64,000 bases of DNA from an uncultured Chitinophaga sp. (GTDB lineage Bacteria; Bacteroidota; Bacteroidia; 2-12-FULL-35-15): contig CAZJUY010000006.1 in the NCBI GenBank assembly GCA_964549315.1, positions 45,639 to 109,638 of the forward strand, written 5' to 3'. The notes under the pieces are model-generated. The model worked only from the letters and a program-made list of their open reading frames with translations. It searched no databases and was not told the DNA's origin. Every line of letters begins with the position of its first letter. The first letter of the stretch is position 1. The position numbers and the translations under genes are program-made. This document shows, in pieces, positions 37,217 through 53,625 of this stretch.

Positions 37217-37226
37217 TAATTCAGTA

Positions 37227-39272
37227 ATGCAAAGTAGGAGAAGAATCAACATAGCATTGCTAGTATTATTGTTGGCTGCTGTTGTAGGTTTGATTGTTGT
37301 TGAAAAAAATAAAAAGACAGAGAAACTTTCTGTCTCTTCGAATATTACTTTCCAAGATTCAACATATTACTCTGAATTATATGCCGAGTTTTTTAATTTC
37401 GAAAATATTGATTTAGGTATAACTGCTTCTAAAAAGACTTATTCTGGAACGCAAAGCACTATGCTTACTCCTGAAATTGAGTTTGGTTTTGGAATTACTA
37501 AATCTATTACCCAACTATCGGTATTAAAAAATACAGAACAAGTTATCATTGATTTTATGTGCATGTCTCCAATTGTAGATAGTAGCGTTCATTATGTTTT
37601 GTCTGTGAGTAATGCTAAAAACGAATCCGTTTTTTGGGATGGAAAACCAATTAAAATTGAAAAAGCAAATACTTGGATAAAAAGTCAAATTAAATTTAGC
37701 ATTAGTCCAGAATTGCTTATTCCTGAAAATACATTTCAATTTTATTTATGGAATAGAGATAAAAAGGAATTATACGTTGATGATTTAAATTTCACACTGT
37801 ATGGAAAAGTGATATATAAAGAGGAAAAATCAACACAAATTTCGTCTAATTATTTTTTTGATTTTGAAACAAATGATGGTTTGTCGGGCACAGATAATTT
37901 AAAAGCTTGTACTTCTCATTCAGGTAAAATAGCTTGCGATTTGAGTGAAGGACAAGAGTTTGGTGTTTCAGTTATAAAAACAGTAAAAGAAATAAGTGAT
38001 GCGCCTTTAACAAAAATAAGTGCTAGTGTTTGGTTTTACTCATTAGAAGAAAATACAAATACGCACCTTACGGCTTCAGTAGTAAACGATAAAAATGAAA
38101 CAGTGTTTTGGGGAGGAAAAGGAACGGATACTGGAAAATTTCCTAAGAATCAATGGACAAAATTGAATGTTTCGTTTGCTTTGCCTAGCGATAAAATCTC
38201 TATGAATGATGTGGTTCAAGTAAATATTTGGAATAAAGGAAAAAATAAAATTATTGTTGATGATTTAGAAATTATTTATGGCGATCAGCCAGAAAGAAAA
38301 GGGAAACCAAATGTTATAGACCCATCAGCATTTACAGGGAGCAGTTTTGTTCCTGAAAAAAACAAGCCTCCTTTTCAAATTTTGTATTTGAATAAACAGA
38401 TTGTTGATATTGATGTTTTGAAAAATTATAATTCAAATGACCAGTTTTTTTCTGGTGATTTTGTTAAAGACAAAAATAATTTGGATGAATTACTTAGTAT
38501 AAAAAACAATAAAGCTGAATTGTTGAAATTCAATACTGAACAAAAACAATTTATGAGCGTTTGGAAAAGCAGTTCTGATAATGATTTGACTTCAACAGAA
38601 ATATGGAATTCCAATAATTATATTTTTTCTGCAGATTTTAATGGCGATGAGAAAACAGATTTATTGACGATAGATAAGACTTCAGGGGAAACCAAACTTT
38701 ATAATTTTGAAACAAATAAATTTATTTTAAAAAATACGTTAAAAGGCATAGACAAAAAGCATTTAAAATATTTGAACAATATGAATGTTGTTTCCAACTT
38801 TAATATAAATAAACTGCCTGCTTTAGTTTATTTCACTGAAAAAAATATGGTATTACTTCAGTTGAAGGCTGACAAATTGGAAGAAAATCAAACAAACTTA
38901 ACTGGAGACTTTATGATTTTTAAAACTGCAGATAAACTATTTTCTATAGTTTCTTCTTCTCAAAAAAACACTTTATTAAGATTGAATACAGAATGGCGAT
39001 TTGATTTACAGCTAATTGAAAAAAACAGTTCAGAAATTAGCATTAAAAATGTTTTAGATTTTAAAGGATATGCTAATGACTACAATCCTAAATATTACGA
39101 ATACACAAAAATTATAATAGGAAGATTTATGGATAAAAATAGTTCTTCTGTTTTGGTTGTTTCCTGCAATTGTAAAGACGATAAGTTTGATGGTGTGCTT
39201 TGTAATGAAATTGAAAATTTAAAAGAATTACCCAATTCAATTAATATTTATTCAGTAGATGATGTTAAATAG
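37227..39272 (+). CDS. Single-TM hypothetical protein carrying two copies of a ~130-aa beta-rich domain shared with the C-termini of the GT-C-like proteins further right
   Basis: The likely start is MQSRRRINIALLVLLLAAVVGLIVV at 37227; the tracked ATG at 37185 overlaps the ABC gene. Domain copies end 'FQFYLWNRDKKELYVDDLNFTLYG' and 'VQVNIWNKGKNKIIVDDLEIIYGD'. Confidence 0.6.
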   Translation: MQSRRRINIALLVLLLAAVVGLIVVEKNKKTEKLSVSSNITFQDSTYYSELYAEFFNFENIDLGITASKKTYSGTQSTMLTPEIEFGFGITKSITQLSVLKNTEQVIIDFMCMSPIVDSSVHYVLSVSNAKNESVFWDGKPIKIEKANTWIKSQIKFSISPELLIPENTFQFYLWNRDKKELYVDDLNFTLYGKVIYKEEKSTQISSNYFFDFETNDGLSGTDNLKACTSHSGKIACDLSEGQEFGVSVIKTVKEISDAPLTKISASVWFYSLEENTNTHLTASVVNDKNETVFWGGKGTDTGKFPKNQWTKLNVSFALPSDKISMNDVVQVNIWNKGKNKIIVDDLEIIYGDQPERKGKPNVIDPSAFTGSSFVPEKNKPPFQILYLNKQIVDIDVLKNYNSNDQFFSGDFVKDKNNLDELLSIKNNKAELLKFNTEQKQFMSVWKSSSDNDLTSTEIWNSNNYIFSADFNGDEKTDLLTIDKTSGETKLYNFETNKFILKNTLKGIDKKHLKYLNNMNVVSNFNINKLPALVYFTEKNMVLLQLKADKLEENQTNLTGDFMIFKTADKLFSIVSSSQKNTLLRLNTEWRFDLQLIEKNSSEISIKNVLDFKGYANDYNPKYYEYTKIIIGRFMDKNSSSVLVVSCNCKDDKFDGVLCNEIENLKELPNSINIYSVDDVK

Positions 39273-41205
39273 ATTGTTTAATAAAGTAAAAAGGGAAGCA
39301 AGTATGCTATTACTTATAGTAATTGTATTGGCATCTTGTAATTCTGATAATAAAGACAAACAATCATTTTCTTGTGAGGATTTTTCTGTTCAAAATTTTA
39401 ACCCAATTGTAAACTATCAATCAGATAGCAGTAACAATAAAACTATTTATATTGACTATAACAATGCGTTGGATGGTTTTGTAATCCCTTCTGTAAATCA
39501 AACGGAGGATGGACAATTTGAGTTTGAATTTGAAATAAAAAATAAGAGCAAAAAAGCACAAAAATTTTATTACAAAATATATTATCAAAACGAAAGCTAT
39601 AAATTTTTAGAATATGATTCTTTGGCGAAAGCTCCAAATCCATTGGCCGAAGAAAATTTCTATGGAAGCTGGGAAGTTGCAGATGTTATTTTTAGAGAAA
39701 CTGCCTCTATTCCTTCTACTGAAGATTTTATTAAAATAAAAGACAAATTTCGTATTGTAGGGAACCCTAGAAATGAGTTGAGGTACTTTAATGAAAATGT
39801 GAACGACAGGTGGAAACGAAACCCAAGAGTAGGGAAGTATAAATTTATGTTGGTAGTTTGTACCGTAGAGGATTTGAAACTTATTCCTAATGAAATCAAA
39901 AATATTTGTATTAAAGAAAAAGAACATTTTATAAATCCATTTTATTATTATAATTATGGTGAAGGCAAGTCACTAAAACAATCTATTGTATATAATGCTT
40001 CTCAAGATTTAAATGTAATTGCGAAACCTAATTTGGGTGTAGGAATTTACATTAATGATATGATTTTTAAGGGAAATAATTATGATAGATCATACTTCTG
40101 CAAAACATGTGGGCAAGACAGCAATATCTACAAAAATTCTGCTATTCAACAATTTATAAATTATGTGGATGCATCCACTAAAATGGAAAATATTCCGGTG
40201 ATTGCCGATATTTTAAAAGACAACTATTCAAATATGGATTATAATTGGAACAAAAATTTTTATAAAAAAGAAGAATTGATTCCTACTTTAATTCAAACAT
40301 CTAAGCATCCTTGCCAAACCGTTTTTTCTGATGAAAAAGAAAATAAAATTGTGATTAAAAATCCTGCTACAAAATATGGCGAATGGAAAAAAGAAAGTGT
40401 AGGAATTATTACACGTCACGGTTTTACTTATGGTAAGTACAGAGTAAAAGTAAAGCTTACGGAATTACTAAATAAAAATGGAGTATGGAATGGTTTAACA
40501 AATGCAATTTGGTTAATTACACAAGGTGGTGGTGAATGGAATTACAGAAGAAATTGCAACAAAGAAGGTTATATGGCTAGTTACTGGGGAGGAAGGGATG
40601 ATAAACGTGTTCCAGCAGTGGATTATTCTGAAATAGATTTTGAAATATTAAAAACACCGCCTTATTGCCCTGACAATGCTTTTCCTCCAGTATTTAAAAA
40701 TTCAAAAGACAATAATAAAAATATAAATAGTTGGAATGTATCCATGCCTACTGATATTACTGACAATAAAAATAATATTACAGTAGCTTGTACCAATTGG
40801 GACATGGCTTGTTGGGAACCCAAAAACTTTGGAGTAGGTTGTAACGAATTAAAACACAAAGAACAAACATATTATACTCATCGTTGGGATCATTGGTACA
40901 GAGCCCTAACCGAAAAGAAAGAAGAGAATGATGATGAGCTTTTTGCAGGTGAATTTTATTATTTTGAAATAGATTGGCGCCCAACCGAAATTATTTGGCG
41001 TATAGGACCAAGTCCTGATAAAATGCGTGAGGTAGGTTATATGAATGAAACAGTAACTTCCATACCAAATAACCAAATGCTTTTAATAATAACACAAGAA
41101 TACCATAATACCAAGTGGTGGCCTGGCGCACCTTACTCACAAGATAATTTGCCATTCCCTTTGAATGATATTAAGGGTGAGATTTATGAGTTGGTGATTG
41201 AGTAA
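39259..41205 (+). CDS. Lipoprotein, possibly a GH16-like (concanavalin-fold) glycoside hydrolase
   Basis: Lipobox 'LIVIVLASCNSD'. 'VWNGLTNAIWLITQGG', then 'DYSEIDFEILK' (E-x-D-x-E, like the lichenase 'EIDIEFLG'), then 'YYFEIDWRPTEIIWRIG'. The call rests on motifs only. Confidence 0.4.
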   Translation: MMLNRLFNKVKREASMLLLIVIVLASCNSDNKDKQSFSCEDFSVQNFNPIVNYQSDSSNNKTIYIDYNNALDGFVIPSVNQTEDGQFEFEFEIKNKSKKAQKFYYKIYYQNESYKFLEYDSLAKAPNPLAEENFYGSWEVADVIFRETASIPSTEDFIKIKDKFRIVGNPRNELRYFNENVNDRWKRNPRVGKYKFMLVVCTVEDLKLIPNEIKNICIKEKEHFINPFYYYNYGEGKSLKQSIVYNASQDLNVIAKPNLGVGIYINDMIFKGNNYDRSYFCKTCGQDSNIYKNSAIQQFINYVDASTKMENIPVIADILKDNYSNMDYNWNKNFYKKEELIPTLIQTSKHPCQTVFSDEKENKIVIKNPATKYGEWKKESVGIITRHGFTYGKYRVKVKLTELLNKNGVWNGLTNAIWLITQGGGEWNYRRNCNKEGYMASYWGGRDDKRVPAVDYSEIDFEILKTPPYCPDNAFPPVFKNSKDNNKNINSWNVSMPTDITDNKNNITVACTNWDMACWEPKNFGVGCNELKHKEQTYYTHRWDHWYRALTEKKEENDDELFAGEFYYFEIDWRPTEIIWRIGPSPDKMREVGYMNETVTSIPNNQMLLIITQEYHNTKWWPGAPYSQDNLPFPLNDIKGEIYELVIE

Positions 41206-41238
41206 AAAAATTATATTTGTATAGTAAATTTTAGAGCG

Positions 41239-41973
41239 ATGTTTTATTATAAAAAATGGGCCATTGTAGTACCAATGGCAAACGAAGAAGAAGATTTTAA
41301 ACCATTTATAGAAATGGTGAATTTTGTGATTAATGAACTAAACCCAGGTAATGTTTATTTTATAATCGACAAAGCATCTAAGGATAGAACATTGGAGTTG
41401 TGTCAGGAATTATCAGCAAAAGACCCGCGTTATGTAACAGTTTGGGCGCCCGATAATAAAAATGTGGTAGATGCTTATGTTAAAGGATTACGTGTTGCTT
41501 ATGAAGCAGGACACGAGATTATTATTGAAATGGATGCAGGCTTATCGCATGACCCAAGAGCAATACCAATGTTTTTACGAGTATTGAACGAAGGAAATGA
41601 ATGTGCATTTGGAAGTAGATTTATTAATGGTGGTTCTATGGGCGATTCTCCTTTTAAACGCAGAATGCTTTCTAAAACGGGGACAGTATTAGCAAATATG
41701 CTTTTAGGAACAAAATTAAAAGACATGACATCTGGGTACCAAGGTTTTCATAGAGATGTAGTAGAAAAGATTATTAATCATGATTTTAAATCCAAAGCAC
41801 ATTTTTATCAAACAGAGTTAAGGTATTTATTACGTAAACGAAGAATGTTTGAAGTGCCAATTCATTATCAAGCACCATCTCCTCGTGTATCAAAAAATGC
41901 AATAAAAAATGCATATCAAACATTGTTTTATTATTTCTTTCAACGATTGATAGGAAATAAACCAACATTGTAG
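41239..41973 (+). CDS. Family-2 glycosyltransferase (polyprenol-phosphate sugar synthase-like)
   Basis: 'WAIVVPMANEEEDFKPF', 'YFIIDKASKDRT' and 'EMDAGLSHDP', the DxD/QxxD region of DPM1-like GT2 enzymes. Confidence 0.8.
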   Translation: MFYYKKWAIVVPMANEEEDFKPFIEMVNFVINELNPGNVYFIIDKASKDRTLELCQELSAKDPRYVTVWAPDNKNVVDAYVKGLRVAYEAGHEIIIEMDAGLSHDPRAIPMFLRVLNEGNECAFGSRFINGGSMGDSPFKRRMLSKTGTVLANMLLGTKLKDMTSGYQGFHRDVVEKIINHDFKSKAHFYQTELRYLLRKRRMFEVPIHYQAPSPRVSKNAIKNAYQTLFYYFFQRLIGNKPTL

Positions 41974-41983
41974 CACCTTGTCT

Positions 41984-42200
41984 TTTCGAACGAAACGTAG
42001 TGTAGAGAGAAAAGAAATCTTACAAATAATGAGATTCCTCTCTGCGGTCGGAATGACACATAAAAACTGTCATTTCGAACGGAATGAAATGAAGTGAGAA
42101 ATCTTACAAATAATGAGATTTCTCCTTACAGTCGAAATGACAAATAGGAATTGTCATTTCGAACGGAATAGAATGGAGTGAGAAATCTCTTAAAGTAGAC
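41984..42200. repeat. Array of ~85-bp REP-like repeat units (2.5 copies), each containing two hairpins, upstream of the GIY-YIG gene
   Basis: Unit 'TTTCGAACGGAATGAAATGAAGTGAGAAATCTTACAAATAATGAGATTTCTCC..GTCGGAATGACA....TGTCA'. Hairpin 1 is 'gagaaatct(N11)agatttctc'. Hairpin 2 is 'cggaatgaca(N9)tgtcatttcg'. Confidence 0.85.
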
Positions 42201-42210
42201 TTTTATTAAA

Positions 42211-42522
42211 ATGAACTACAATTATTTTATTTATATACTTACAAATAAGAATAAAACCGTACTATATATTGGAGTTACAAACAATTTGGAAAGAAGACTT
42301 TTAGGACACTCAAATATTTTCAAAAATAAGTTTAAATTTACGACTCGTTATAATTGTGTCCATTTGATTTATTATGAGAGGTTTTCAGATATTAATCAAG
42401 CAATAAAACGAGAAACAGAAATTAAAAAGTGGAGAAGGGAAAAGAAAGAAAATTTAATTAAATCAGTCAACCCTAAATGGGAATTTCTGAATGATGAAAT
42501 TAAAGAACGTTTTTTTGAATGA
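42211..42522 (+). CDS. GIY-YIG nuclease family protein (COG2827-type small URI-domain endonuclease)
   Basis: 103 aa. 'YFIYILTNKNKTVLYIGVTNNLERRLLGH' carries the GIY, YIG, Arg and His motifs. 'NQAIKRETEIKKWRREKKENLI' carries the catalytic Glu. Confidence 0.85.
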   Translation: MNYNYFIYILTNKNKTVLYIGVTNNLERRLLGHSNIFKNKFKFTTRYNCVHLIYYERFSDINQAIKRETEIKKWRREKKENLIKSVNPKWEFLNDEIKERFFE

Positions 42523-42525
42523 TGG

Positions 42526-42730
42526 GGTTTCTTCTCGCAATCAGAATGACAAACACGAAGCTGTCATTTCGAGTGAAGTGAAGCGAAACGAGAAATCTTT
42601 TAAATAATGAGATTTCTCCCTATGGGCGGAATGACAAATAGGGGATGTCATTTCGAACGAAATGCAATGAAGTGAGAAATCTTTTAAATAGTAAGATTCC
42701 TCCCAATGGTCGGAATGACAGTATAAATTT
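42526..42730. repeat. Second block (about 2.5 copies) of the same ~85-bp double-hairpin repeat, downstream of the GIY-YIG gene
   Basis: '...cagaatgacaaacacgaagctgtcatttcgagtgaagtgaagcgaaacgagaaatcttttaaataatgagatttctccctatgggcggaatgacaaataggggatgtcatttcgaacg...'. The six-frame ORF 42541..42906 (-) is just a translation of these repeats. Confidence 0.85.
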
Positions 42731-42793
42731 GAAAAAAACATAACGGTATAAATACTAATAAAAACTGCGCCTTTGCGCCTCAGCGGTAAAAAT

Positions 42794-43795
42794 ATGAAAT
42801 CACTAATTATAACATCTATTGCAAACGATAAACATCCAATCTTAAAACAATTTGCAAAAGAATGCAAAGAGCATAATACTCCTTTTATTGTAATAGGGGA
42901 TACCAAATCACCAGCTGAATTTGATCTTGAAGGCTGCGATTTTTGGAGTGTAGAACGTCAATTAACTTTGCCCTTTGAATTAGCAAAAATTACTCCTACA
43001 CGTCACTACTCAAGAAAAAACTTGGGTTATTTATTAGCCATAAAAAATGGCGCAACAGAGTTAGTTGAAACCGATGACGATAATATCCCACGCAAAGAAT
43101 TTTGGGAAGCAAAATCGCGTGAAGTAAAAAGTTACAAGTTTGAAAATACAGGTTGGGTAAATGTGTATCATTATTTTACCAAGCAAATGATTTGGCCTAG
43201 AGGATTTCCATTAGAAGAGTTGCAAAAAAAACAAATAGATACAGCTACTTTAAAATACGAAGCAATAAATTGCCCGATACAGCAAGGATTGGCTGATGAA
43301 AACCCAGATGTGGATGCCGTTTACCGATTAACTTATCCTTTGCCACTAAATTTTGAAATAAAAACACAATTGGCATTAGGAAAAAATGCATGGAGCCCAT
43401 TCAATAGCCAAAATACATATTGGTTTAAAGAAGCATTTGCATTAATGTATTTGCCATCTTATTGTAGTTTTAGGATGACAGATATTTGGCGCAGTTATGT
43501 AGCACAACGTATTGCTTGGGAATGTGGCTGGAGTGTTTTATATCATGAACCAACCGTTTGGCAAGAACGTAATGAACATAATTTGATGAAAGATTTTGAA
43601 GATGAGATTTCTGGCTACACTAATAATTTTAATATTTGTAAAGAATTACAAAGTCTTGAACTAAAAAAAGGACAAGAAAATATTTTTGATAATTTAATTA
43701 CCTGCTATCAAAAACTAATTGACATAAATGTAATTGGCAAAGAGGAGATGGTTTTGCTAAAAACTTGGGTTGGGGATTTAGGGAAATTGATTTAA
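42794..43795 (+). CDS. Hypothetical protein, possibly a nucleotide-sugar (GT-A-like) glycosyltransferase
   Basis: The likely start is 'MKSLIITSIANDKHP' at 42794; the tracked 42773 ATG lies inside a small dyad. Acidic 'ELVETDDDNIP' is DxD-like. The call rests on the locus context of glycosylation genes. Confidence 0.4.
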   Translation: MKSLIITSIANDKHPILKQFAKECKEHNTPFIVIGDTKSPAEFDLEGCDFWSVERQLTLPFELAKITPTRHYSRKNLGYLLAIKNGATELVETDDDNIPRKEFWEAKSREVKSYKFENTGWVNVYHYFTKQMIWPRGFPLEELQKKQIDTATLKYEAINCPIQQGLADENPDVDAVYRLTYPLPLNFEIKTQLALGKNAWSPFNSQNTYWFKEAFALMYLPSYCSFRMTDIWRSYVAQRIAWECGWSVLYHEPTVWQERNEHNLMKDFEDEISGYTNNFNICKELQSLELKKGQENIFDNLITCYQKLIDINVIGKEEMVLLKTWVGDLGKLI

Positions 43796-43805
43796 AATTG
43801 GACTT

Positions 43806-45677
43806 ATGTTTTCAAAAATTAACAAGAACAATAAAATTTCTCTTCTTGCAGTTTTTGTTATCTCTTTTATAATATTATACTTTCATTATACACTTCCTAG
43901 GTATAAATATTACGGATTTACAAAAGAATTTGAGTGGGATATTCTATCTTACTACTTGTATTTGCCTTTGACTTTTATTAAGCATGATTATGGGATAAGC
44001 GATTACGCTTATATTCAAACTATTTTTGAGCAGTATCATTTTTCTCCTTCTTTTTACCAAGCCAATCAGTTGCATAATGGTAATTGGGTAATGGTTTATA
44101 CATCTGGCATGGCAATTTTACAATTCCCCTTTTTTTGTATTGGACATCTTTGGGCTAACTTGGGAGGATATCCAATGGATGGATTTTCGTTCCCATATCA
44201 ATTTTGTGTTTCGACAGGGAATATGTTTTATATCATTTCTGGCATTTTTTTGATGAGAAAAATTTTATTGAACTATTTTTCTGACGGTATTGTATCGGTT
44301 ACTCTTATATTATTATTATTAGGTACAAATTATTTTCGAGAAGCGACAGACTATAATATGGGGCCTCACGCAATTCTTTTTGCATTATACTGTCTGCTGT
44401 TATTAAATACAATAAAATGGCATAAAACCCCGAAAATTAAATATTCTATACTTGTTGGAATTTCTGTAGGGTTTCTGACCTTAATTCGCCCAACAGAATT
44501 AATTTGTATTCTTATTCCAATTTTTTGGAATGTGAGTAGTCTGCAAACATTAAAAAATAAAATCAGTATTGTTAAACAAAATTGGAAACATTTACTAATA
44601 CTGGTATTTACGGTGCTCCTCGTTGGTTTGCCTCAAATAATTTATTGGAAATATTTAACCGGGTCATGGGTATATAATAGCTACGATAACCAAATATCTT
44701 TTGATATCTCCGAATCTCATTTATTTAAAATTTTATTTAGCTTTAGAAAAGGCTGGTTTGTATATTCTCCATTGATTGTTATTGCATTAATAGGAATCTA
44801 TTTTTTAGGTAGAAATAAATTAATGGAAGCGAGAAGCTCAATTGTTTTATTTATTATCTGCAATGTTTTTATTCTTTCTCATGTGCCTATTTGGTGGAAT
44901 GCTGGTAGTTTTGGGCAAAGATTTATGGTGCAATCTTATGCATTATTGGCACTTCCAATGGCTTGTTTTATAGAGATAATAATCTTTCAAAAAAAAATAT
45001 TTTACAAAATTCTATTAATTCCAATTTTTATCTTTCTTGTATTTTTGAATTTGTTTCAAACATGGCAATTTGTTAGATGGATTATTCCTGGAGATGGAAT
45101 TACAAAAGAATTTTATTTTCGGTCTTTTTTAAAAACTGCTGTTACAGAAGAAGATAGGTCTTATTTGGAATTACAAAGAACTTTTGATAATACTCAAAAA
45201 TTTGACGAGAATAATAAAGCCTATAAGTCAAAAATCCTTGCTTTTTATGATATTGAAAATTTCAAAAAAAATAATTTTGTTGATTCTGCAGGTCATGCTT
45301 TAAGTGGTAAAAAATCATTTATGATGACCAGTGAATATTGTTACTCTCCAGGTGTTGACACTTCATTCTTCGCAATAACCGCTAAGGATCATGCATGGAT
45401 AAAATTTAGTGTTTCTTTGTATTCTTTACGTGAATTAGAAGAGAAGGATGCAGTTATAGTGATGCACTTTTCTCATAAAGAAAAATTATATAGTTATATG
45501 GAATTCCCTTTTAAACAAGATCAAATTGCTGCCAAGAAATGGAATATTATAACAGCATATTATTTAACACCATCAGTTTTTTCAGAAGATGATAGGTTGA
45601 AAGCCTATGTTTGGTACAAAGGAAAAGATACATTATATGTTGATAATATCAAAATTGAGGCATTTGAAAAGAAATAA
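43806..45677 (+). CDS. Polytopic membrane protein, GT-C-superfamily-like, with a C-terminal extracytoplasmic beta-rich domain
   Basis: At least 10 TM segments in the N-terminal 420 aa. The C-terminal soluble domain ends 'LKAYVWYKGKDTLYVDNIKIEAFEKK'. The N-terminus 'MFSKINK' resembles that of the convergent neighbour. Confidence 0.6.
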   Translation: MFSKINKNNKISLLAVFVISFIILYFHYTLPRYKYYGFTKEFEWDILSYYLYLPLTFIKHDYGISDYAYIQTIFEQYHFSPSFYQANQLHNGNWVMVYTSGMAILQFPFFCIGHLWANLGGYPMDGFSFPYQFCVSTGNMFYIISGIFLMRKILLNYFSDGIVSVTLILLLLGTNYFREATDYNMGPHAILFALYCLLLLNTIKWHKTPKIKYSILVGISVGFLTLIRPTELICILIPIFWNVSSLQTLKNKISIVKQNWKHLLILVFTVLLVGLPQIIYWKYLTGSWVYNSYDNQISFDISESHLFKILFSFRKGWFVYSPLIVIALIGIYFLGRNKLMEARSSIVLFIICNVFILSHVPIWWNAGSFGQRFMVQSYALLALPMACFIEIIIFQKKIFYKILLIPIFIFLVFLNLFQTWQFVRWIIPGDGITKEFYFRSFLKTAVTEEDRSYLELQRTFDNTQKFDENNKAYKSKILAFYDIENFKKNNFVDSAGHALSGKKSFMMTSEYCYSPGVDTSFFAITAKDHAWIKFSVSLYSLRELEEKDAVIVMHFSHKEKLYSYMEFPFKQDQIAAKKWNIITAYYLTPSVFSEDDRLKAYVWYKGKDTLYVDNIKIEAFEKK

Positions 45678-45679
45678 AA

Positions 45680-47653
45680 CTATTGTAAGATAATGCTCAA
45701 GTTGTCAACATAAAAATTATTTTCGGAAGGGTTCCAAAAATAAATTTTTAAAATAGCATCCTTTGGTAAGTTATTTGGTAAAATAGATTTCATGCTTATT
45801 TCTTTCCAAACTTCAATTTCTTTAATTTTTTCTGGAATAAATAGTTCTTCTCTAAAAAGTGTTTGGTTTTCTTTTTCAACCGAAACAACTAGGTGAGAAG
45901 TATTACCTTCTTTACAAAAAATAAAAGAAGAAATAATGATTGTTTTTTTTGTGTCTAGCTCTAAAATAGGTTTTGTAATTCCAATGCTGTACTCGTTGTT
46001 TTTATTCAATTTTAAACTGTATTTGCCGTCAAAATATATTTCACTAGAAGTTTCAGAAACATCTTTACATCCTTCTTTTTTTTCGAATGATGTTTTATAA
46101 ACATCTACCGTGTCTTTGTTTGAGTCAATTCCTGCAAAACATTCAAAAACATCACATTTTGCGTTTTTGTTTTTTGTAATAATTTTTACAGGATTACATT
46201 CTAAATTGTTTTTTACAAATAGGGTATATCCCGTATTTATTTTTTTATAATTATCACACTCTTTAAATCCTTTCGAAAGAATAAAAGCATAATTAGCATT
46301 TTCTGGGTCTTCAAATTGGTTGTGAGATTGTACGTATATTATTTTATTAATAGAATCAAAGTTTAATTTTTTCCAGCCAAACCATTCATCCTTTGCAGAA
46401 AAATAGACATTTTTTTTAGCAAGCGCCTCTGCGCTATTTTTGTAGTTTTTAAATGCGCTTAAATCATAGTAAAAAGAAAAATCTTTAAATTTATAAGAGG
46501 CGCAAATAAAGATAACAGTATTCTCATCCTGCATTTTTTTTACCATAGGAACAAAGTGTTTCCAATCATCTTCTCGTTCTTGTGTTATTCTGAAAGATGA
46601 AAAAATAAACAGTAATAGAGGTAAAATGAATGCAAGTTTGTATACATTATTTAACTTAATGTTTGCAAAACAATAGGCTATAAGTAAAAATAGGCCCAAA
46701 CTACTATATAAAATATAACGAGTTAGAAATACAGGAGTGTATTGGGCTATAAAAAAATCCAATCCTATCGGAATAATAAATAATAAGGTAAAAACTGTAA
46801 AATATTTAGAATTGAAATTTTCGTAATACACCCCAATTTTTTTATTTACTATCACTAGAAAAACAAATAAGAATACTAATGTGAGGAATATATAAAACAA
46901 ATTATTATTACCCATTAACAAGTTCGTATGCCATCTAAAATCAGCATAGTTTGGTGCATGTGACCAAAACGATCCTTCTTTAGGAATATTAGATAACAAA
47001 ACATTTACCCATGGTAAAAATGCTAGACTTACTAAAATTTGGCTGGTAAAATAATAGACAACAATTTTTTTATTTTCTTTTAAGAAAAACCAAATACATA
47101 AAAATTGAACAACAAAAATAAAAATTGTTAAATAATGAGTGTAGAGGAGTAGAGTATTTGTTAGGAATAAAAAAATGATATCTCTTTTGTTTTGAGATTT
47201 AATAATATTGAAATAAAAATAAAAGGATAAAATGCATAACAATTGAATTAATGCATAGGGTCTTACTTCAGTAGCGTAAAACTGTTGTGCATTTGAAAAT
47301 AGAAAAAGAAAAGACACTAAATAAGCTGATTGTTTGTTTATGTGCTTTTTTGTAAACAAAAAAAGTACTAATCCTGCTAATGCGCTACATATTACAGAAA
47401 ACATTTTAGCTGACACATCAGAAATCCCAAATATTTTAATCCAAAAATGTAACAATGCTATATGCATTGGTGGATTTTGATCATGCAAAAAAATTTCTTT
47501 TAGTTCTGATAAGCTCTTTTGTGCTTGAAAAATACTGTAAGGTTCGTCACCATACAAACTTTCATTTGTAATTTCATAGCTTCTCACAAAGATGGTGAGC
47601 GATAAAAAAGTCAAAACAAAAAATAGTAAAGGTTTGTTAATCTTTGAAAGCAT
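45680..47653 (-). CDS. GT-C-family glycosyltransferase (ArnT/PMT-like, polyprenol-phosphate-sugar dependent) with a C-terminal beta-rich domain
   Basis: 'LYGDEPYSIFQAQKSL...HDQNPPMHIALLHFWIKIFG' is the first periplasmic-loop DE motif typical of the GT39/GT83 families. There are ~11 TM segments. The C-terminus is '...AILKIYFWNPSENNFYVDNLSIILQ'. Confidence 0.75.
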   Translation of the reverse strand: MLSKINKPLLFFVLTFLSLTIFVRSYEITNESLYGDEPYSIFQAQKSLSELKEIFLHDQNPPMHIALLHFWIKIFGISDVSAKMFSVICSALAGLVLFLFTKKHINKQSAYLVSFLFLFSNAQQFYATEVRPYALIQLLCILSFYFYFNIIKSQNKRDIIFLFLTNTLLLYTHYLTIFIFVVQFLCIWFFLKENKKIVVYYFTSQILVSLAFLPWVNVLLSNIPKEGSFWSHAPNYADFRWHTNLLMGNNNLFYIFLTLVFLFVFLVIVNKKIGVYYENFNSKYFTVFTLLFIIPIGLDFFIAQYTPVFLTRYILYSSLGLFLLIAYCFANIKLNNVYKLAFILPLLLFIFSSFRITQEREDDWKHFVPMVKKMQDENTVIFICASYKFKDFSFYYDLSAFKNYKNSAEALAKKNVYFSAKDEWFGWKKLNFDSINKIIYVQSHNQFEDPENANYAFILSKGFKECDNYKKINTGYTLFVKNNLECNPVKIITKNKNAKCDVFECFAGIDSNKDTVDVYKTSFEKKEGCKDVSETSSEIYFDGKYSLKLNKNNEYSIGITKPILELDTKKTIIISSFIFCKEGNTSHLVVSVEKENQTLFREELFIPEKIKEIEVWKEISMKSILPNNLPKDAILKIYFWNPSENNFYVDNLSIILQ

Positions 47654-47654
47654 G

Positions 47655-48374
47655 TTAGGAGCTGAAATTATACTTTAATATACACCAAATAGCTCTAAAT
47701 CCATCTTTCCAGCCAATTTTTTTGCCTTCTTCATAAGTTCTTCCGTAATAAGAAATTCCAACTTCATAGATTCGAATTTTTGGCACTTTAGAAATTTTTG
47801 CTGTTATCTCTGGTTCAAAACCAAAACGTTTTTCTTTTAGTTTTATATTTTGTATGATTTCTGTTTTAAATAATTTATAACAGGTTTCCATATCTGTTAA
47901 ATTTAAATTGGTAAACATATTGGATAAAAATGTCAAAAATTTATTTCCTATAGTATGCCAAAAAAATAAAATACGATGAGGTTCGCCACCAATAAATCTA
48001 GAGCCATAAACCACATCAGCAAAGCCATTTGCAACGGGTTTTAATAAAATATTATACTCTTCTGGGTCGTATTCTAAATCGGCATCTTGAATAACTATAT
48101 ATTCCCCAGTCGCTAATGAAATTCCTTTGTGTAATGCAGCTCCTTTTCCTTGATTATATTCTTGATTGAATAAGCGAATGTTAAATTGACTGTGCTCGGA
48201 AATATATTTTTCAATTACTTCTTTTGTTCCGTCATTTGAATAATCATTAACAATGATTATTTCTTTTTCAATATTATTTATTAATTCTACTGCAATTACC
48301 TTGTTTAATATTAGGTGAATTGTTGCTGCCTCATTATAAGCAGGAATAATTATAGATAATTTTTTAATTTGCAT
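47655..48374 (-). CDS. Family-2 glycosyltransferase, ArnC/DPM1-like (polyprenol-phosphate sugar synthase)
   Basis: '[14 protein letters not shown]', '[12 protein letters not shown]' and '[12 protein letters not shown]'. The stop (47655) is 2 bp from the stop/start region of the GT-C gene, an operon-like arrangement. Confidence 0.85.
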
Positions 48375-48376
48375 TT

Positions 48377-48467
48377 AATTAGAATAACTAATTCATTTTA
48401 ATTGCATTGTTTTTAAAAGCAATTCTTGTTTATTTGGATTCCAAAGATAAACTTTTAATTCGTCTCC
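48377..48467. repeat. Copy A of a 91-bp near-identical direct repeat (1 mismatch versus 50611..50701). It is a relic of the 3' end of the 50609..52504 gene and abuts the GT2 start codon.
   Basis: 'aattagaataactaat[t/c]cattttaattgcattgtttttaaaagcaattcttgtttatttggattccaaagataaacttttaattcgtctcc' is present at both sites. On the minus strand it encodes '...GDELKVYLWNPNKQELLLKTMQLK'. Confidence 0.9.
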
Positions 48468-48544
48468 CATTTTAATTTCAGATTGATTCTGTTATACTAA
48501 GTTATGCCGTCTTTAGTCCCATTCTACAATGGCGAATTAAAATT

Positions 48545-50440
48545 TCATTGCTGATTTTCAATAATCCAAAGTGCATCAATATAGATAGCAGAATCGAGTG
48601 GTATGTTTTTTGTTTTTGCTTTTTCCTCTATTTCTTTTACCCATGCTGGTACACTTTTAATTTCAAGCATTTTGTTAAAAAGTATTTTTTCTTTTGTAAG
48701 AGTGCTATCGTAAACAAAATTTAAATCTAATTTGAGAACATACGCAGCATTTTTTTTAAGGGCTGTTTCCTCTGATATGTTTTCATTTAATGCTTGTTGT
48801 TTAATAATAGCGTACCATTCAGGAGTTGATTTTATCTCTTTGCTTTTTGAATAAATTTTGTTTTTAGCAATAAATTGCTTTAGTTTAATTGGAGATAGAA
48901 TCCCAATAAAATTATAATCTACATCTATATAGGCCCAATTGTTATTATATTTTAAACAATAACTAATAGAATCAATTGCTTCTTTAGTCAATCCTACATG
49001 TTCAAGATTTTTTAAATAATCGCGATGAACCAATAGTTTAGTAATGTTGTCATCTTCTTTCATATAATAAAAAGGAGATGCGTTAGGGCTACTCATTAGT
49101 TCGGGGAAGTATCTTGAAATAAAAATTACATTATCCGGATTGTAAAGCCGAGGGTAATTTTCAAAAAACCAGTTGGATAAAGGCTTTGGTTGATTCGTAT
49201 CCCAATCATATTTAGTTAATGTGGCATGATAATAAACGGTAGCAATTTGTGTGATTATTGAGAAGTAAATAATAATCTTTTGAATTGCTTCTTTTTGTAA
49301 GTCCATTACTAAATAAAAAAAGTGCACCAAAATAAATCCACTAATATAAGTCACGTACCTTAAAACAACTGATTGCCCATGATTCCAGTCATATATTGTT
49401 GCGGAAATGCAAATAGCGCCTATCATTGAAAATACAATAATTAGATCTAAAAATGGGACACCTTTTTTTATAAAAACAATTTTTCTAACAATAAGAAAAA
49501 TATAAGCGAATAAAACAAATGGTATAGCTAGTATTGCACCTTGATTAACATCAAAAAAGAATCCAACAATTCTGTTTACAGTAACATAGTCAAAACTTAA
49601 TGCTCCTTGGTATTTTATCAAATTAGTTTCCCCAAAATGATAGAAATAGAATACTGAAGGGATAAAAACGATTAATATACTCAAGCCGATTTTAATTAAA
49701 TTTTTTAAATTTATTCCGTTGATATATATTACATAAAGTGATAATCCAGCTATGACAATGGCAATGGGTTGATTTTGTAATGAGGCTAAAGAAATTAAGA
49801 ATAACCCCCAATAATATTTTTTAGAAAGAAACAGCCAAAGACCTAATGTTGCAAAACAAACAGTTGCAATTTCAGGGTGTTGCCATGATAAATACCAATA
49901 GTTAGTGGAATAAAAAAATAAAAAAATAAATGCAGCTGTTTTAAATTCATCAAATACAGAGAATTTGAATAGTAGGAAACAGGTTATTAATAATAAAATT
50001 AAATTTGTTAAAATTCCTATAAACAAGGGATTAAAGCCAATAATATTGCAAAGAATTTTTGAAGGAATATTTAATAAAGAGTAGAAAAAAAAGTGAACAC
50101 TAAATTGCTTCCCATCTTTACTAGTAAAAAAGCGATAGTCAAAATCTAATTTTTTATGGTTCTTTTGTGCTACATACTCTTGAACTTCATCATAGTATTT
50201 TGATTTTTGATTGGTTTCCCACTTGTTTACTTTACAGTACGCCTTTTTAAATGATTCAAAATCTTCTTTATTTACGTCAGGACTAAAATGATTATACAGA
50301 GCCTCTGTTGTGATGGTATATTCTACTGCATCTCCATTAGGATACAAAGGTTTTTCCTTGCTTAAGCGAATAATTGCTAAAATGGTAATTAATAATAGAA
50401 CTACTGTTTTGTACATATTTATTTTCAAGCGCATGCTCAT
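48545..50440 (-). CDS. Polytopic membrane protein, GT-C-like (hypothetical)
   Basis: 'YPNGDAVEYTITTEALY' in the first loop, then ~11 TM segments. Its C-terminal domain differs from that of the neighbouring paralog-like genes. Confidence 0.55.
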   Translation of the reverse strand: MSMRLKINMYKTVVLLLITILAIIRLSKEKPLYPNGDAVEYTITTEALYNHFSPDVNKEDFESFKKAYCKVNKWETNQKSKYYDEVQEYVAQKNHKKLDFDYRFFTSKDGKQFSVHFFFYSLLNIPSKILCNIIGFNPLFIGILTNLILLLITCFLLFKFSVFDEFKTAAFIFLFFYSTNYWYLSWQHPEIATVCFATLGLWLFLSKKYYWGLFLISLASLQNQPIAIVIAGLSLYVIYINGINLKNLIKIGLSILIVFIPSVFYFYHFGETNLIKYQGALSFDYVTVNRIVGFFFDVNQGAILAIPFVLFAYIFLIVRKIVFIKKGVPFLDLIIVFSMIGAICISATIYDWNHGQSVVLRYVTYISGFILVHFFYLVMDLQKEAIQKIIIYFSIITQIATVYYHATLTKYDWDTNQPKPLSNWFFENYPRLYNPDNVIFISRYFPELMSSPNASPFYYMKEDDNITKLLVHRDYLKNLEHVGLTKEAIDSISYCLKYNNNWAYIDVDYNFIGILSPIKLKQFIAKNKIYSKSKEIKSTPEWYAIIKQQALNENISEETALKKNAAYVLKLDLNFVYDSTLTKEKILFNKMLEIKSVPAWVKEIEEKAKTKNIPLDSAIYIDALWIIENQQ

Positions 50441-50465
50441 TAAGTAAAAGTAATATTATCTTGTT

Positions 50466-50606
50466 ATCTTAATTTTTTTAGTCTGAATGTCAATCCAATT
50501 ATGAATACTTCCTTCTGTATAGGTTCTAAAATAGTAGAAAAATTCTGATTTGTAAATTCTAATTCAAAACATCTTTTATCTAATTTAATATTTTGTATGA
50601 TTCTCA
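50466..50606 (-). pseudogene. Decayed, internally deleted remnant of an ArnC-like GT2 gene
   Basis: The minus-strand ORF 'MRIIQNIKLDKRCFELEFTNQNFSTILEPIQKEVFIIGLTFRLKKLR' aligns to residues ~172-215 of the intact GT2 at 47655..48374 ('[42 protein letters not shown]'). It shares a 15-nt identical stretch 'aatcatacaaaatat'. Its ATG sits directly after copy B of the 91-bp repeat, just as the intact GT2 follows copy A. Confidence 0.6.
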
Positions 50607-50608
50607 TT

Positions 50609-52504
50609 TTAATTAGAATAACTAATCCATTTTAATTGCATTGTTTTTAAAAGCAATTCTTGTTTATTTGGATTCCAAAGATAAACTTTTAATTCGTCTC
50701 CTGATTTAGTTTGAATAGGAATATCGTTCGCAGAAAAATTCGCACTGAATACACCTTTTGAACTATAAATGAAATCATTTAATCGGTAATTTTTCCAAAA
50801 ATATAGTGAGCCCTTTTCTTGTAGTGACATTATAAAAAATACATTCCCAGCTATATTTTGGTTAGTTTCAAATTCTACTTGGCAAGAAAGAGCTGTTCTG
50901 CCCTTTGGCAAACTGTCGAGTAAAACAATGTTAATTCCCGGACTATATTCAACTTCCGAATTTATTTTAAATGATGAATAATTAGCAATTGTATCAATAA
51001 AAATGCTTGTTTTTTTGAAAATTAATTTTGGTTTTGCTAACACATTTTTAGTAATAGGATAGATCTTAATTATTTCTAATGAATCAACATTTTCATTTTT
51101 TAAATCTTCTGGTCTTAAAAAAAAATAGTCGTCTAAATAGCTAATTCTTTTTGCACGCATTGTTTGGTTTAACCAGTTAAGTTGGTTTGTATTTCTATAA
51201 AAATTTATACTACTTTCTAATGATAGTGGAATGCCTATTGATAGATTAAATTTTTCAGACGACACTTTTTTTATTTTTTCCAAATCGGATAACATGTCTT
51301 TTGTTTCGCAATCGTCTTTCCACTCATAAACATATTTAAAATTAATCGAAAACAGGAAATGTACAATCACGAATAAGGCGAACAGATGAAGACAAACTTT
51401 GTATATATTCTTTTTCAACATTAACTCTTTTACTAAAAAAATAAATACAACTAAAAAAATAGCATATAAAAACAAGACTGCTCTTTCTATCAAATACAGC
51501 GTGCCCAATAAATAATGTTGTAAAACAGTAAAAAATAATATTCCTAGGAATAATAAAAGCATTACCGTTAAAGAGGATAAGTTTTCTGATTTTTTATTTT
51601 TTAAAAAATTGAAAATACTATAGTATAATGCTATGAATATTACAATAAGAATAAATCCCTTGGAAAGTCTTATTAAATAGTATGAAAAATCTAGTCCGTA
51701 CCATAATCGTGGAATAATAGTTCCTAGTGTATCGGTCCATAATCCACTTTCGCCACCCATAAACAACGCTCCAGCTTTACGTAATTCAAAAGAATAGGGT
51801 AGTATTAGAAACAAGAAAGAACCGAATAGGAATGTTGGTAGTAAAAGTTGGTAAATGGTTTTTTTAATAGCATTTATCTTGTTAGTGTTTTTATTATAAT
51901 TGTTATAGAAAAAAATCAGAATGATAATACAGTACAGAACGAAAAAGTAGTTTAATAATGTTAAATTACCTAGTGTGCCTAATGCTGCAAATAGTAGAGA
52001 AATTACAGCATATTTTATTTTAATTTTTTCTGAATTAAACTCAAACAAATAGTATATGCTTGGCATTAAAAATCCTAAAGAAATTCCATATCCGCGAGAT
52101 AATGAAAAAAAATCTAGCATAAAAGGGTTTAAATTCAAAATTAAAAAAGCAGAAATAGAAACCCATTTATTGTTTAATTTGAGAGTTAATTTAGCAGAAT
52201 AGAAAAGAAAAAACAGGTGAGAAAATAGAGTAGTTAGTCGAAGCGTAAATTCAGAAACGCCAAATAGTTTTGTGAAAAAAATCCCTCCAATTGAATTTAG
52301 TATATGATTGTTTGCTGACATCACTCCAAATTCCTTTGGATAATATATCCCGTGCTTAATAAATTCTAAATATGTATAAGATTCATCCCAAGTAATTGAA
52401 AGAAGGTAAGCTCGAGTTACAGTGTATGAAAAAATTAAAACTCCAAAAACAATGATTGTTATGAATGCAATCTTATTTTTGGAGTAAGGATTATTATTTA
52501 GCAT
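50609..52504 (-). CDS. Polytopic membrane protein, GT-C-like, with the shared C-terminal beta-rich domain
   Basis: 'SITWDESYTYLEF' is a DE-type first-loop motif. There are ~12 TM segments. The C-terminus 'GDELKVYLWNPNKQELLLKTMQLKWISYSN' is encoded by repeat copy B. Confidence 0.6.
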   Translation of the reverse strand: MLNNNPYSKNKIAFITIIVFGVLIFSYTVTRAYLLSITWDESYTYLEFIKHGIYYPKEFGVMSANNHILNSIGGIFFTKLFGVSEFTLRLTTLFSHLFFLFYSAKLTLKLNNKWVSISAFLILNLNPFMLDFFSLSRGYGISLGFLMPSIYYLFEFNSEKIKIKYAVISLLFAALGTLGNLTLLNYFFVLYCIIILIFFYNNYNKNTNKINAIKKTIYQLLLPTFLFGSFLFLILPYSFELRKAGALFMGGESGLWTDTLGTIIPRLWYGLDFSYYLIRLSKGFILIVIFIALYYSIFNFLKNKKSENLSSLTVMLLLFLGILFFTVLQHYLLGTLYLIERAVLFLYAIFLVVFIFLVKELMLKKNIYKVCLHLFALFVIVHFLFSINFKYVYEWKDDCETKDMLSDLEKIKKVSSEKFNLSIGIPLSLESSINFYRNTNQLNWLNQTMRAKRISYLDDYFFLRPEDLKNENVDSLEIIKIYPITKNVLAKPKLIFKKTSIFIDTIANYSSFKINSEVEYSPGINIVLLDSLPKGRTALSCQVEFETNQNIAGNVFFIMSLQEKGSLYFWKNYRLNDFIYSSKGVFSANFSANDIPIQTKSGDELKVYLWNPNKQELLLKTMQLKWISYSN

Positions 52505-53259: not shown

Positions 53260-53625
53260 TTAATTTGAGTTTATTATAGTTTTATTTTTTGAAGAAGAAA
53301 TAATCTTCGACAATATTTTAACAATCTCTTTTATTTCTTTTTGTAGCAATTCACAATCAGGGTAATTTTCCGATTTTTGGCACAACAATAACCAATACTC
53401 TGTTTCATCTGCTTCTTTGGCTGCAATTTTCATTTTGTGAATAAAATCTGCCTTGCTTTCTGCATTTTGCGCCTCTCTAACATTTGCTCCAATTGATGTT
53501 CCTGACTTTAATAATTGATTTGCAATTACATATTTTCTGTTGGACTCCAACTGTTCGGCAAACTCAACAATCAATAAAGCAAACTCAAACGTTTTTTCAA
53601 CAATAATATTTGGTTTCTCTTGCAT
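53260..53625 (-). CDS. Four-helix-bundle protein (TIGR02436 family, homolog of the 23S rRNA intervening-sequence protein), inserted between scoA and scoB
   Basis: 'KTFEFALLIVEFAEQL...IANQLLKSGTSIGANVREAQNAESKADFIHKMKIAAKEADETEYWLLL'. Confidence 0.8.
   Translation of the reverse strand: MQEKPNIIVEKTFEFALLIVEFAEQLESNRKYVIANQLLKSGTSIGANVREAQNAESKADFIHKMKIAAKEADETEYWLLLCQKSENYPDCELLQKEIKEIVKILSKIISSSKNKTIINSN

Follow-up and report, generated by a model that had tools for sequence, protein, structure and literature searches.

What kind of system is encoded by a compact group of glycosyltransferase-like genes in an uncultured Chitinophaga sp. is the question raised by the window analyzed here, i.e. 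the whole stretch of 64,000 nucleotides from contig CAZJUY010000006.1 (assembly GCA_964549315.1, positions 45,639 to 109,638 of the forward strand; all coordinates below count from its first letter). The island in question is taken to span about 37227–52504 (~15 kb), its genes are labeled A to J, and its plus-strand and minus-strand gene sets meet convergently at 45677/45680. An original prediction, made from the sequence alone, had described it as a glycosylation island of the polyprenol-phosphate type extending from 39259 to 52504. All eight open reading frames (ORFs) named there lie at the coordinates and on the strands given, and the right end of the island was kept, while the left end had to be moved about 2 kb earlier to take in gene A. 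The island probably encodes an extracytoplasmic glycosylation system that draws on polyprenol-monophosphate sugars, with a cell-envelope glycan taken as the acceptor. Its core logic, by which donor synthases serve membrane-embedded glycosyltransferases of the GT-C class, is very likely correct.

Plausible candidates for the transferases are four large polytopic proteins, F (43806–45677, plus strand), G (45680–47653, minus strand), I (48545–50440, minus strand) and J (50609–52504, minus strand). G is a GT-C of the PMT_2 (GT39/GT83-like) type and scores 35.8 bits with PMT_2 (PF13231), above the gathering cutoff of 26.1 bits. The GT-C-like F stays below this cutoff at 20.9 bits (4.4e-4) and matches, at 2.7e-10, the NCBIfam family LA_3751/LA_3752 of putative glycosyltransferases. 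J is a divergent PMT_2-related GT-C: it gives no PMT_2 match itself, but 33 of the 57 aligned members of its family (181 homologue clusters) do, the best at 1.3e-10. Eight residues are invariant in these 57 sequences, i.e. D40, E41, N66, H67, R89, R137, Y139 and R341. Protein I belongs to a family without earlier description that comprises 49 clusters only, all from uncultured Bacteroidota. Neither Pfam nor NCBIfam returned a match for I, and PMT_2 was matched neither by I nor by its family, in which D37, E40 and Y41 are invariant (40 sequences), forming a D-x-x-E-Y motif after the first transmembrane (TM) helix. Sequence searches of the PDB with G as a single sequence and with the I and J families as profiles gave nothing significant.

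The assignment of I rests on its AlphaFold2 (AF2) model, which shows the hallmarks of the GT-C fold, namely a polytopic body with 7–13 TM helices and a helical extracytoplasmic module after TM1. In the fold comparison, the model gave values of 22.5 for ALG12, 17.1 for Pmt4, 16.7 for ArnT, 15.7 for AglB, 15.3 for ALG9, 15.0 each for AftB and PIG-M, and 14.4 each for AftA and ALG3, and no Wzy, WaaL or transporter was listed among the matches. With Foldseek, AftA, AftB, ALG3 and ArnT received probabilities of 0.91–0.99, and transporters did not exceed 0.14. The C-terminus of I is helical, unlike the domain shared by F, G and J (see below). A helical repeat within it ('W..I..KA...L..DA', encoded at 48545–48685, residues 585–631) also occurs as an insert in proteins of the B family: it matches residues 163–209 of a B-like protein from a distant related locus (L004, 18285–20309) at 4e-6, and the consensus of the B-family alignment contains it as well. 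The repeat thus represents a second small module common to a GT-C and the GH16-like protein. Between the I and J families, hhalign gave a probability of 76%; we claim a shared fold class only and no specific relation. In BLAST comparisons among the island proteins, the membrane domains of F, G, I and J were not detectably alike.

In all four proteins, a K/R-rich N-terminal tail precedes TM1 and an acidic motif follows directly after it. Since the first hydropathy-based TM caller split segments and gave unreliable TM counts for F, G and J, the charge bias around TM1 was used instead, together with the AF2 model of I. The net charge is about +2 in the tail and -1.2 to -2.6 in the 20 residues that follow TM1 in 100% of the scored I-family (n=35) and J-family (n=45) sequences, which places the acidic motifs on the periplasmic side and not in cytoplasmic loops. 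The motifs that had been pointed out beforehand are largely conserved. 'GDEPY' of G is kept in its orthologues from the related loci L001 and L002, 'GDAVEY' of I contains the invariant D37, E40 and Y41, and 'WDESY' of J holds D40 and E41. As for 'EWD' of F, W45-D46 (and also E42) are retained in the sole orthologue, from locus L003, while E44 is not. Taken together, the PMT_2 matches, the family conservation and the fold of I bear out the reading of the four polytopic proteins as GT-Cs, and none of them maps to O-antigen ligases, Wzy polymerases or transporters. Their putative use of lipid-phosphate sugar donors is supported only indirectly, by the adjacent GT2 genes, which resemble dolichyl-phosphate-mannose (Dol-P-Man) synthases.

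The similar first residues of F and G (MFSKINK and MLSKINK) had been taken as a hint of an inverted duplication, an idea that did not survive closer inspection. The first 21 nt agree at 18 of 21 positions (43806–43826 and 47633–47653), and the next 69 nt at 29, which equals the background for A+T-rich DNA here. Moreover, no relation exists between the upstream regions, a Smith-Waterman alignment of the membrane domains reaches a z of 1.4 against shuffled sequences, and the G orthologues open with 'MNLRTSL' and 'MMSSIIK'. The only real similarity of F and G is found in their C-terminal domain (about 23% identity), and the resemblance of the starts is probably due to chance in an A+T-rich genome with Lys/Asn-rich N-terminal tails.

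The donors would be provided by two soluble GT2 enzymes, H (47655–48374, minus strand, 239 aa; Dol-P-Man synthase/AglJ/ArnC/GtrB type) and C (41239–41973, plus strand, 244 aa; Dol-P-Man synthase type). H matches PF00535 at 1e-34 and NCBIfam AglJ at 2e-29, and its best PDB relative is the Dol-P-Man synthase 5mlz from Pyrococcus (1e-15), followed by ArnC and GtrB (1e-11). The earlier call of H as a DPM1/ArnC-like GT2 is hence well founded, and it is equally sound for C, which matches PF00535 at 4e-15 and has 5mlz (2.5e-22) and ArnC as its sole PDB relatives. The NCBIfam matches of both proteins are partial and below cutoff (AglJ, PgfS, a haloarchaeal Dol-P-hexose transferase and ArnC), and no equivalog cutoff was reached. 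H carries the motif 'QDADLEYDP', with the DAD that we take to be characteristic of DPM1, GtrB and ArnC. In C, the corresponding 'EMDAGLSHDP' (residues 97–106) has Gly instead of the second Asp of a regular DxD, as well as a Glu two positions upstream. Because C is 88–98% identical across five genomes, this motif is regarded as a conserved variant rather than as decay. A hydropathy scan found no hydrophobic segment in H or C, and in this TM-less state they are presumably akin to DPM1-type enzymes. By sequence, H and C are closest to characterized lipid-phosphate sugar synthases (GT2 enzymes of the Dol-P-Man synthase/GtrB/ArnC type), and we propose that they represent two polyprenol-phosphate sugar synthases, of which C would be paired with E. 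A third small GT2 of this type, K (238 aa, PF00535 at 2.6e-26), which is likewise free of hydrophobic segments, is encoded 10 kb upstream of the island. Its gene and a subsequent ORF, whose 157-aa product has a hydrophobic core and matches nothing in Pfam, occupy 26678–27873.

Protein E (42773/42794–43795, plus strand) had been listed as a DxD-containing hypothetical protein. The motif is indeed present (as DDD), yet the protein is not hypothetical: it is a cytoplasmic GT-A enzyme of the GT75/STELLO type and related to MtdL, a Mn-dependent GT75 nucleoside diphosphate-pyranose mutase (PMC9937993). Its start is probably the ATG at 42794, as predicted originally; the mechanical ORF opens at a TTG at 42773. 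E matches Pfam STELLO (PF03385) at 1e-11 and, over residues 65–298, the crystal structures of MtdL (2.4e-18; 7xpr and others). When the functional residues of MtdL (PMC9937993) are mapped onto E, 11 of 15 are kept, i.e. D109-D111, R159, D195, S228, Q229, R257, D260, R289 and H292; in E, D101–103 (DDD), R143, D179, S212, Q213, R234 and D237 correspond to the DxD motif, R159, D195, S228, Q229, R257 and D260 of MtdL, respectively. The changed positions are S86 (His), D87 (Tyr79 in E), R90 (Lys) and the Mn ligand H287 (Gln264 in E). All 15 mapped positions are identical to E in 121 of 121 family sequences. At least 7,967 homologues of E were counted, and the best 120 homologue clusters are at least 80% identical to it. 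In MtdL, Asp87 is essential, with the D87N and D87S variants being inactive, and this position is occupied by Ser in active plant RGPs; Tyr is found there in the inactive AtRGP5, and the S91Y exchange abolishes the mutase activity of AtRGP2 (PMC9937993). Given Tyr79 and Gln264 at the positions of Asp87 and the Mn ligand H287, E is filed as GT75/STELLO-like only and not as a proven mutase. We consider it possible, with more doubt than confidence, that E is an active pyranose mutase. E may provide or alter the nucleotide sugar that C consumes, a role in line with its similarity to MtdL and with the double sugar epimerase/dehydratase gene that three genomes carry between C and E (see below).

The remaining components may act on glycans outside the cytoplasm. 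A (37185/37227–39272, plus strand) has a single N-terminal TM helix after a tail with seven K/R residues, which places its domains in the periplasm. Apart from a faint FG-GAP-like signal in its C-terminal region, A features two copies of a ~130-aa domain (37377–37814 and 37848–38282) that recurs at the C-termini of F (45273–45674), G (45683–46087) and J (50612–50992). In BLAST comparisons, the last ~130 residues of G match the two A repeats (2e-6 and 5e-6) and the C-terminus of F (1e-3). Across loci, the G orthologue of L001 matches J (1e-7), and A is matched by the F orthologue (1e-7) and by a 635-aa protein (4e-12) of L003. Fourteen copies can be aligned; they share an invariant Trp and the pattern 'F.FE...SG..S...EYSPG...W...P...Y.WN..K..vDD.EI'. 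The domain is previously undescribed, and hhalign detected no relation to the B family. In F, G and J it should be periplasmic, as is inferred from the PMT_2 family for the C-terminal domains of such GT-Cs.

B (39259–41205, plus strand) is a lipoprotein (lipobox 'LASC') with a C-terminal domain (about residues 360–648) that has the β-jelly-roll of the GH16 fold and a catalytic ExDxE motif (E458, D460 and E462, encoded at 40630–40644), which we take to be the GH16 signature. An exhaustive HMMER search retrieved 229 relatives, and 'YSEIDFEI.K' is near-invariant in 53 of them. B itself has no Pfam GH16 (PF00722) match; 17 of the 53 relatives match weakly, the best at 2.9e-5, and neither the single sequence nor the family profile found a significant match among PDB sequences. 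B is a very divergent GH16-fold enzyme, putatively a hydrolase or transglycosylase, and its earlier description as a GH16-like lipoprotein was apt.

Families and folds, conserved motifs, topology and synteny were computed directly, whereas our statements on the carrier lipid, on which sugars are moved and how they are flipped, on the role of the shared domain and on the acceptor are inferences. In the proposed mechanism, H and C would each use a nucleotide sugar to glycosylate undecaprenyl phosphate in the cytoplasm, affording two different donors. E would act on the nucleotide sugar that feeds C, maybe by converting a pyranose into a furanose as in MtdL. A flippase encoded outside the island would then bring the donors to the periplasmic side of the inner membrane, where F, G, I and J could transfer the sugars to the acceptor via the conserved acidic residues of their first periplasmic loop. 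The shared domain of F, G, J and A may bind this acceptor, while B could cut or transglycosylate a β-linked glycan that is either the acceptor backbone or the product. Every step of the previously envisaged route that can be tested in silico, from cytoplasmic lipid-linked donors to periplasmic transfer by several GT-Cs, is supported.

Genomic context, which the original prediction had suggested to compare, was analyzed in further loci (L001–L006 and the P0415 contig). In related metagenome-assembled genomes, the island is found at one and the same chromosomal site, between ScoAB/PBP1 and ABC/RDD/SpoIIM genes, while its content differs. A contig scan with G did not retrieve the genome of the window itself and returned a single relative, L001, which encodes orthologues of H (84% identity), G (54%), I (46%), B (68%) and A (40%) and is devoid of C, D, E, F and J. 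In L002, J (55%), H (89%), G (68%), I (78%), E (90%), C (98%), B (81%) and A (53%) are accompanied by an extra 530-aa polytopic protein, a 608-aa polytopic protein fused to a RicinB lectin domain (5939–7765) and a protein with a type IX secretion system (T9SS) tail. L003 encodes J (50%), H (87%), F (55%), I (54%), E (92%), C (96%), B (78%) and A, together with extra polytopic proteins of 683 and 635 aa, a T9SS-tail protein, an ALGX protein and a DltB-like MBOAT (4e-50). The latter two (15794–18513) are likely a glycan O-acylation pair. A adjoins B in L001, L002 and L003, the small T9SS-tail proteins are encoded between C and B in L002 and L003, and the extra polytopic proteins of these two loci also carry acidic motifs directly after TM1. 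H abuts a GT-C-like gene in all four loci examined, with differing partners and often with a 4-nt overlap (as for H and G in L001); in the window, the start codon of G lies 1 nt past the stop of H. Hence, the donor enzymes (84–98% identical) and B are strongly conserved, whereas the GT-Cs diverge and get exchanged.

C and E, which are always neighbors, also occur in a different setting in Bacteroidia outside this lineage. Beside the suf operon of L005, L006 and the P0415 contig, a fixed module comprises a ~600-aa polytopic protein, C (89–91% identical to that of the window), a double short-chain dehydrogenase/reductase (SDR) fusion, E (83–85%) and a convergent ~560-aa G-like polytopic protein. 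The fusion protein (677–681 aa), encoded between C and E, combines two SDR domains of the sugar epimerase/dehydratase type, one HpnA-like epimerase and one dehydratase/reductase-like domain. The module spans 5739–12769 in L005 and 5390–12702 in L006. Its ~600-aa polytopic protein, with 'GDD' after TM1, is found in L006 and P0415; at this place L005 harbors a T9SS-tail mutarotase-like protein. The window lineage has C and E without an SDR gene between them. L004 (8242–13854) encodes an I homologue with 37% identity between a PMT_2 GT-C and a UbiA enzyme, the latter being assigned to the NCBIfam decaprenyl-phosphate phosphoribosyltransferases (242.6 versus a cutoff of 234 bits) and followed by a methyltransferase and a HAD-IB phosphatase. 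A UbiA phosphoribosyltransferase together with a HAD phosphatase constitutes a known route to lipid-linked pentofuranose donors (PMC11127046), and the L004 cluster looks like a pentofuranose system of the three-component type with two GT-Cs.

Which molecule is glycosylated is the point on which the readings diverge. An envelope glycan is favored because of the conserved GH16-fold B, the MBOAT/ALGX pair of L003, the RicinB fusion of L002 and the precedent of GT-Cs bearing carbohydrate-binding modules (CBMs), in that GT136, EmbC and AftD possess a C-terminal β-rich CBM that binds the acceptor polysaccharide (PMC11127046). On the choice of such a glycan over protein or lipid A as acceptor we are evenly divided. 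Instead, the GT-Cs might act like PMT/Pmt enzymes or streptococcal PgfM and attach single sugars to Ser/Thr residues of secreted or envelope proteins such as T9SS cargo or A, each GT-C serving its own set of proteins. G, J and F belong to or lie near PMT_2, a family named after protein O-mannosyltransferases, PgfS is the top partial NCBIfam match of C and ranks among the top matches of H, and small T9SS-tail proteins are encoded inside the islands of L002, L003 and L004. Yet PMT_2 also spans ArnT-like and glycan-directed enzymes and so carries no acceptor information, the window island has no T9SS-tail gene, and its GT-Cs feature a putatively β-rich C-terminal domain instead of one of the MIR type. 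With B, the MBOAT/ALGX pair and the RicinB fusion suggesting glycan substrates, protein O-glycosylation appears unlikely. A modification of lipid A or the lipopolysaccharide core is far less probable still. H would in this case make an undecaprenyl-phosphate-sugar that G and its paralogues add to lipid A phosphates or the core, shifting surface charge and antimicrobial peptide resistance. The adjacency of GT2 and GT-C genes and the ArnC structures among the top PDB matches of H and C fit this scenario, and the pair had been called ArnC/ArnT-like. The adjacency stands, while the Arn identity is an analogy only. Dol-P-Man synthase outranks ArnC for both H and C, and their NCBIfam ArnC scores of 56.9 and 32.5 bits compare with a cutoff of 529. 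Membership in the Arn pathway was rejected, as no ArnA, ArnB, ArnD, ArnE or ArnF homologue was found among the scanned ORFs of the window. In addition, four GT-Cs, a GH16 enzyme and carbohydrate-type accessory domains would be superfluous, and the rapid turnover of GT-C genes resembles variation of a glycan structure rather than a fixed modification. Hardly to be expected, finally, is a Wzy-polymerase/O-antigen-ligase pathway on undecaprenyl-diphosphate repeat units with I as the polymerase. Seven of 40 I-family members weakly match EpsG (best 9e-4), and a Wzy_C gene is located at the edge of the distant locus L004; however, the window island encodes no Wzx, initiating phosphoglycosyltransferase or chain-length regulator, and the invariant D-x-x-E-Y after TM1 of I is typical of GT-C catalysis.

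Several observations also weigh against the preferred reading of a polyprenol-monophosphate-dependent system that glycosylates an envelope glycan. On the donor side, C has DAG where H has DAD, both enzymes lack the TM helices present in GtrB, ArnC and the archaeal Dol-P-Man synthase, and E carries Tyr and Gln in place of D87 and the Mn ligand H287 of MtdL. No flippase of the GtrA/SMR, MATE, Wzx or ArnE/F kind was found in the island or among the scanned window ORFs, which leave out five large ORFs between 458 and 16617, and the island contains no plausible small membrane ORF. As to the acceptor, it is not defined by the island, which encodes no glycan-backbone gene (processive synthase, Wzy or initiating phosphoglycosyltransferase). 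The shared ~130-aa domain matched no Pfam family even at a lax threshold and no PDB sequence by profile, and the T9SS-tail proteins of related islands fit a protein acceptor equally well. Furthermore, the products that inverting GT-Cs form from β-linked lipid-phosphate sugars are usually α-linked and hence no GH16 substrates, so that B can be linked to the GT-C products only indirectly.

The island is embedded in a window of about 30% G+C that also encodes GldH, PorP/SprF, PBP1 and a MoxR/DUF58 operon, features that identify the DNA as part of a Bacteroidota chromosome. It is flanked by ABC ATPase, RDD and SpoIIM genes on the left and by ScoB, ScoA and PBP1 genes on the right. On the left, the mechanical ORF of A opens at a TTG (37185) that overlaps the stop of the upstream ABC ATPase gene. 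The ATG at 37227 is probably the start, as it matches the N-terminus of the L002 orthologue. The stretch 35411–37227 holds the gene of this double ABC ATPase, which has oligo_HPY domains, is free of TM domains and ends 10 nt upstream of the probable ATG of A. It adjoins A in L001 and L002, too, which may reflect backbone synteny only or co-transcription with the flippase-less island. On the right, a gene for a 23S rRNA intervening-sequence protein lies between scoB and scoA (53260–53625) and an ORF6N-domain gene between scoA and PBP1 (54452–54997). At the scoB/scoA spot, L003 also has an intervening-sequence protein gene, and L002 has a PDDEXK_3 gene instead; the scoAB/PBP1 region seems to gather small insertions.

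Another insertion (41979–42720, plus strand) separates C from E within the island. It consists of gene D (42211–42522, plus strand), which encodes a GIY-YIG nuclease (PF01541 at 7e-17), and five ~84-nt repeat units of the families D1 and D2, three upstream and two downstream of D. Each unit has internal inverted repeats ('TGTCATTTCGAACG...GAGAAATCT...AGATTTCTC...CGGAATGACA'). Rfam returned only sub-threshold chance matches for the repeats, and no further copy was found elsewhere in the window. The block does not occur in L002 and L003, where the spacer between C and E measures only about 150–200 bp, and it is an insertion that probably stands functionally outside the system.

How does the island compare with known glycosylation systems? 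Literature searches found no description of this cluster. The closest precedents are three-component systems, in which a synthase and a flippase serve a GT-C that may bear a CBM (PMC11127046), and we read the island as an elaboration of this scheme by several GT-Cs. GtrA/GtrB/GtrC of Shigella and Salmonella as well as the PPPRS/MATE/GT136 system of Citrobacter youngae (PMC11127046) synthesize undecaprenyl-phosphate sugars and then transfer them to a glycan by a periplasmic GT-C, which is what we propose for the island. In GT136, D31, E34 and Y35 show the same spacing as D37, E40 and Y41 of I and likewise lie right after TM1. This GT-C of about 650 aa ends in an acceptor-binding β-rich domain, and F, G and J have the same layout with a putatively β-rich C-terminal domain, for which we propose an analogous function. 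In contrast to these systems, the island encodes two synthases and four GT-Cs rather than one each, its synthases do not have the TM anchor of GtrB, it harbors no flippase gene, and it is not located within an O-antigen or capsule locus. Its additions are the GT75-like E, the GH16-fold lipoprotein B and the membrane-anchored A with its two shared-domain repeats. Among the other systems, the adjacent GT2/GT-C pair, the undecaprenyl-phosphate-sugar logic and the PMT_2-type membrane domains are reminiscent of the ArnC/ArnT pathway, whereas ArnC is only the second-best GT2 relative, and the extra GT-Cs and glycan-type accessory proteins have no Arn counterpart.

With the GT75 family (MtdL, Hyg20 and plant UAM/RGP; PMC9937993), E shares the GT-A core, the DDD motif, most of the sugar- and phosphate-binding residues and the arginine that the plant enzymes autoglycosylate. 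The characterized bacterial members serve antibiotic pathways and do not have a lipid-phosphate sugar synthase and a GT-C as partners. Pfam places E under the plant STELLO proteins (PMC4906169), and literature searches found no description of a bacterial STELLO/DUF288 function. The C/E pair is highly conserved (80–98% identity) and, with at least 7,967 E homologues, very broadly distributed, and it points toward an unstudied and probably important sugar pathway in environmental Bacteroidia.

The assembly of mycobacterial arabinogalactan and lipoarabinomannan (Ppm1 and the decaprenylphosphoryl-arabinose (DPA) pathway; PimE, MptA-C, EmbA-C and AftA-D) is similar in that several GT-Cs, some of them with periplasmic CBMs, use polyprenyl-phosphate sugars to build an envelope glycan. 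AftA, AftB, AftD, PimE and EmbA are among the fold matches of I, at identities of only 7–10%. In L004, an I-like and a PMT_2 GT-C are encoded together with a decaprenyl-phosphate phosphoribosyltransferase and a HAD phosphatase, while the window island has neither a UbiA-type nor a DprE-type gene. The source organism, a Gram-negative member of the Bacteroidota, is not known to have an arabinan or mannan of the mycobacterial kind. A bolder scheme, which we regard as rather improbable when taken as one joint claim, would make E the mutase of a distinct bacterial GT75 subfamily (the Tyr/Gln variant) that together with C generates a polyprenyl-phosphate furanose straight from a nucleotide sugar. 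The GT-Cs including I would then serve to assemble or modify an envelope glycan with furanose residues that is widespread in uncultured Bacteroidia, with the shared domain acting as a new CBM. If true, this C/E route to a lipid-linked furanose would differ from the phosphoribosyl pyrophosphate/UbiA route of mycobacteria and Citrobacter.

N-glycan assembly in the lumen of the endoplasmic reticulum (ER) offers a further parallel, since two GT2 Dol-P-sugar synthases (DPM1 and ALG5) feed a series of GT-Cs (ALG3/9/12 and ALG6/8/10, respectively) acting on one lipid-linked glycan. H and C resemble the DPM1 type in length and TM-less state; otherwise, the similarity is one of fold only (13% identity), and there is no sign in the island of a lipid-diphosphate oligosaccharide pathway or an oligosaccharyltransferase.

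Taken together, the scheme is a known one, and the island version combines two TM-less synthases, four GT-Cs of different families, the coupling of E with C, the GH16-fold B and the shared domain in the absence of a flippase gene. Its value is bounded by the computational nature of the evidence, the uncultured state of the organisms and the fact that the sugars and the acceptor cannot be named. It offers a GT-C family without sequence-family assignment (I), a divergent GH16-like family (B) and a candidate glycan-binding domain. To our knowledge, glycosylation from lipid-monophosphate sugars takes the form of one-enzyme decoration in the Gtr, Arn and GT136 systems, and assembly lines of several enzymes are known from no source other than mycobacteria and the eukaryotic ER. 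If borne out, two synthases serving four to six exchangeable GT-Cs would extend this assembly-line form to the Bacteroidota.

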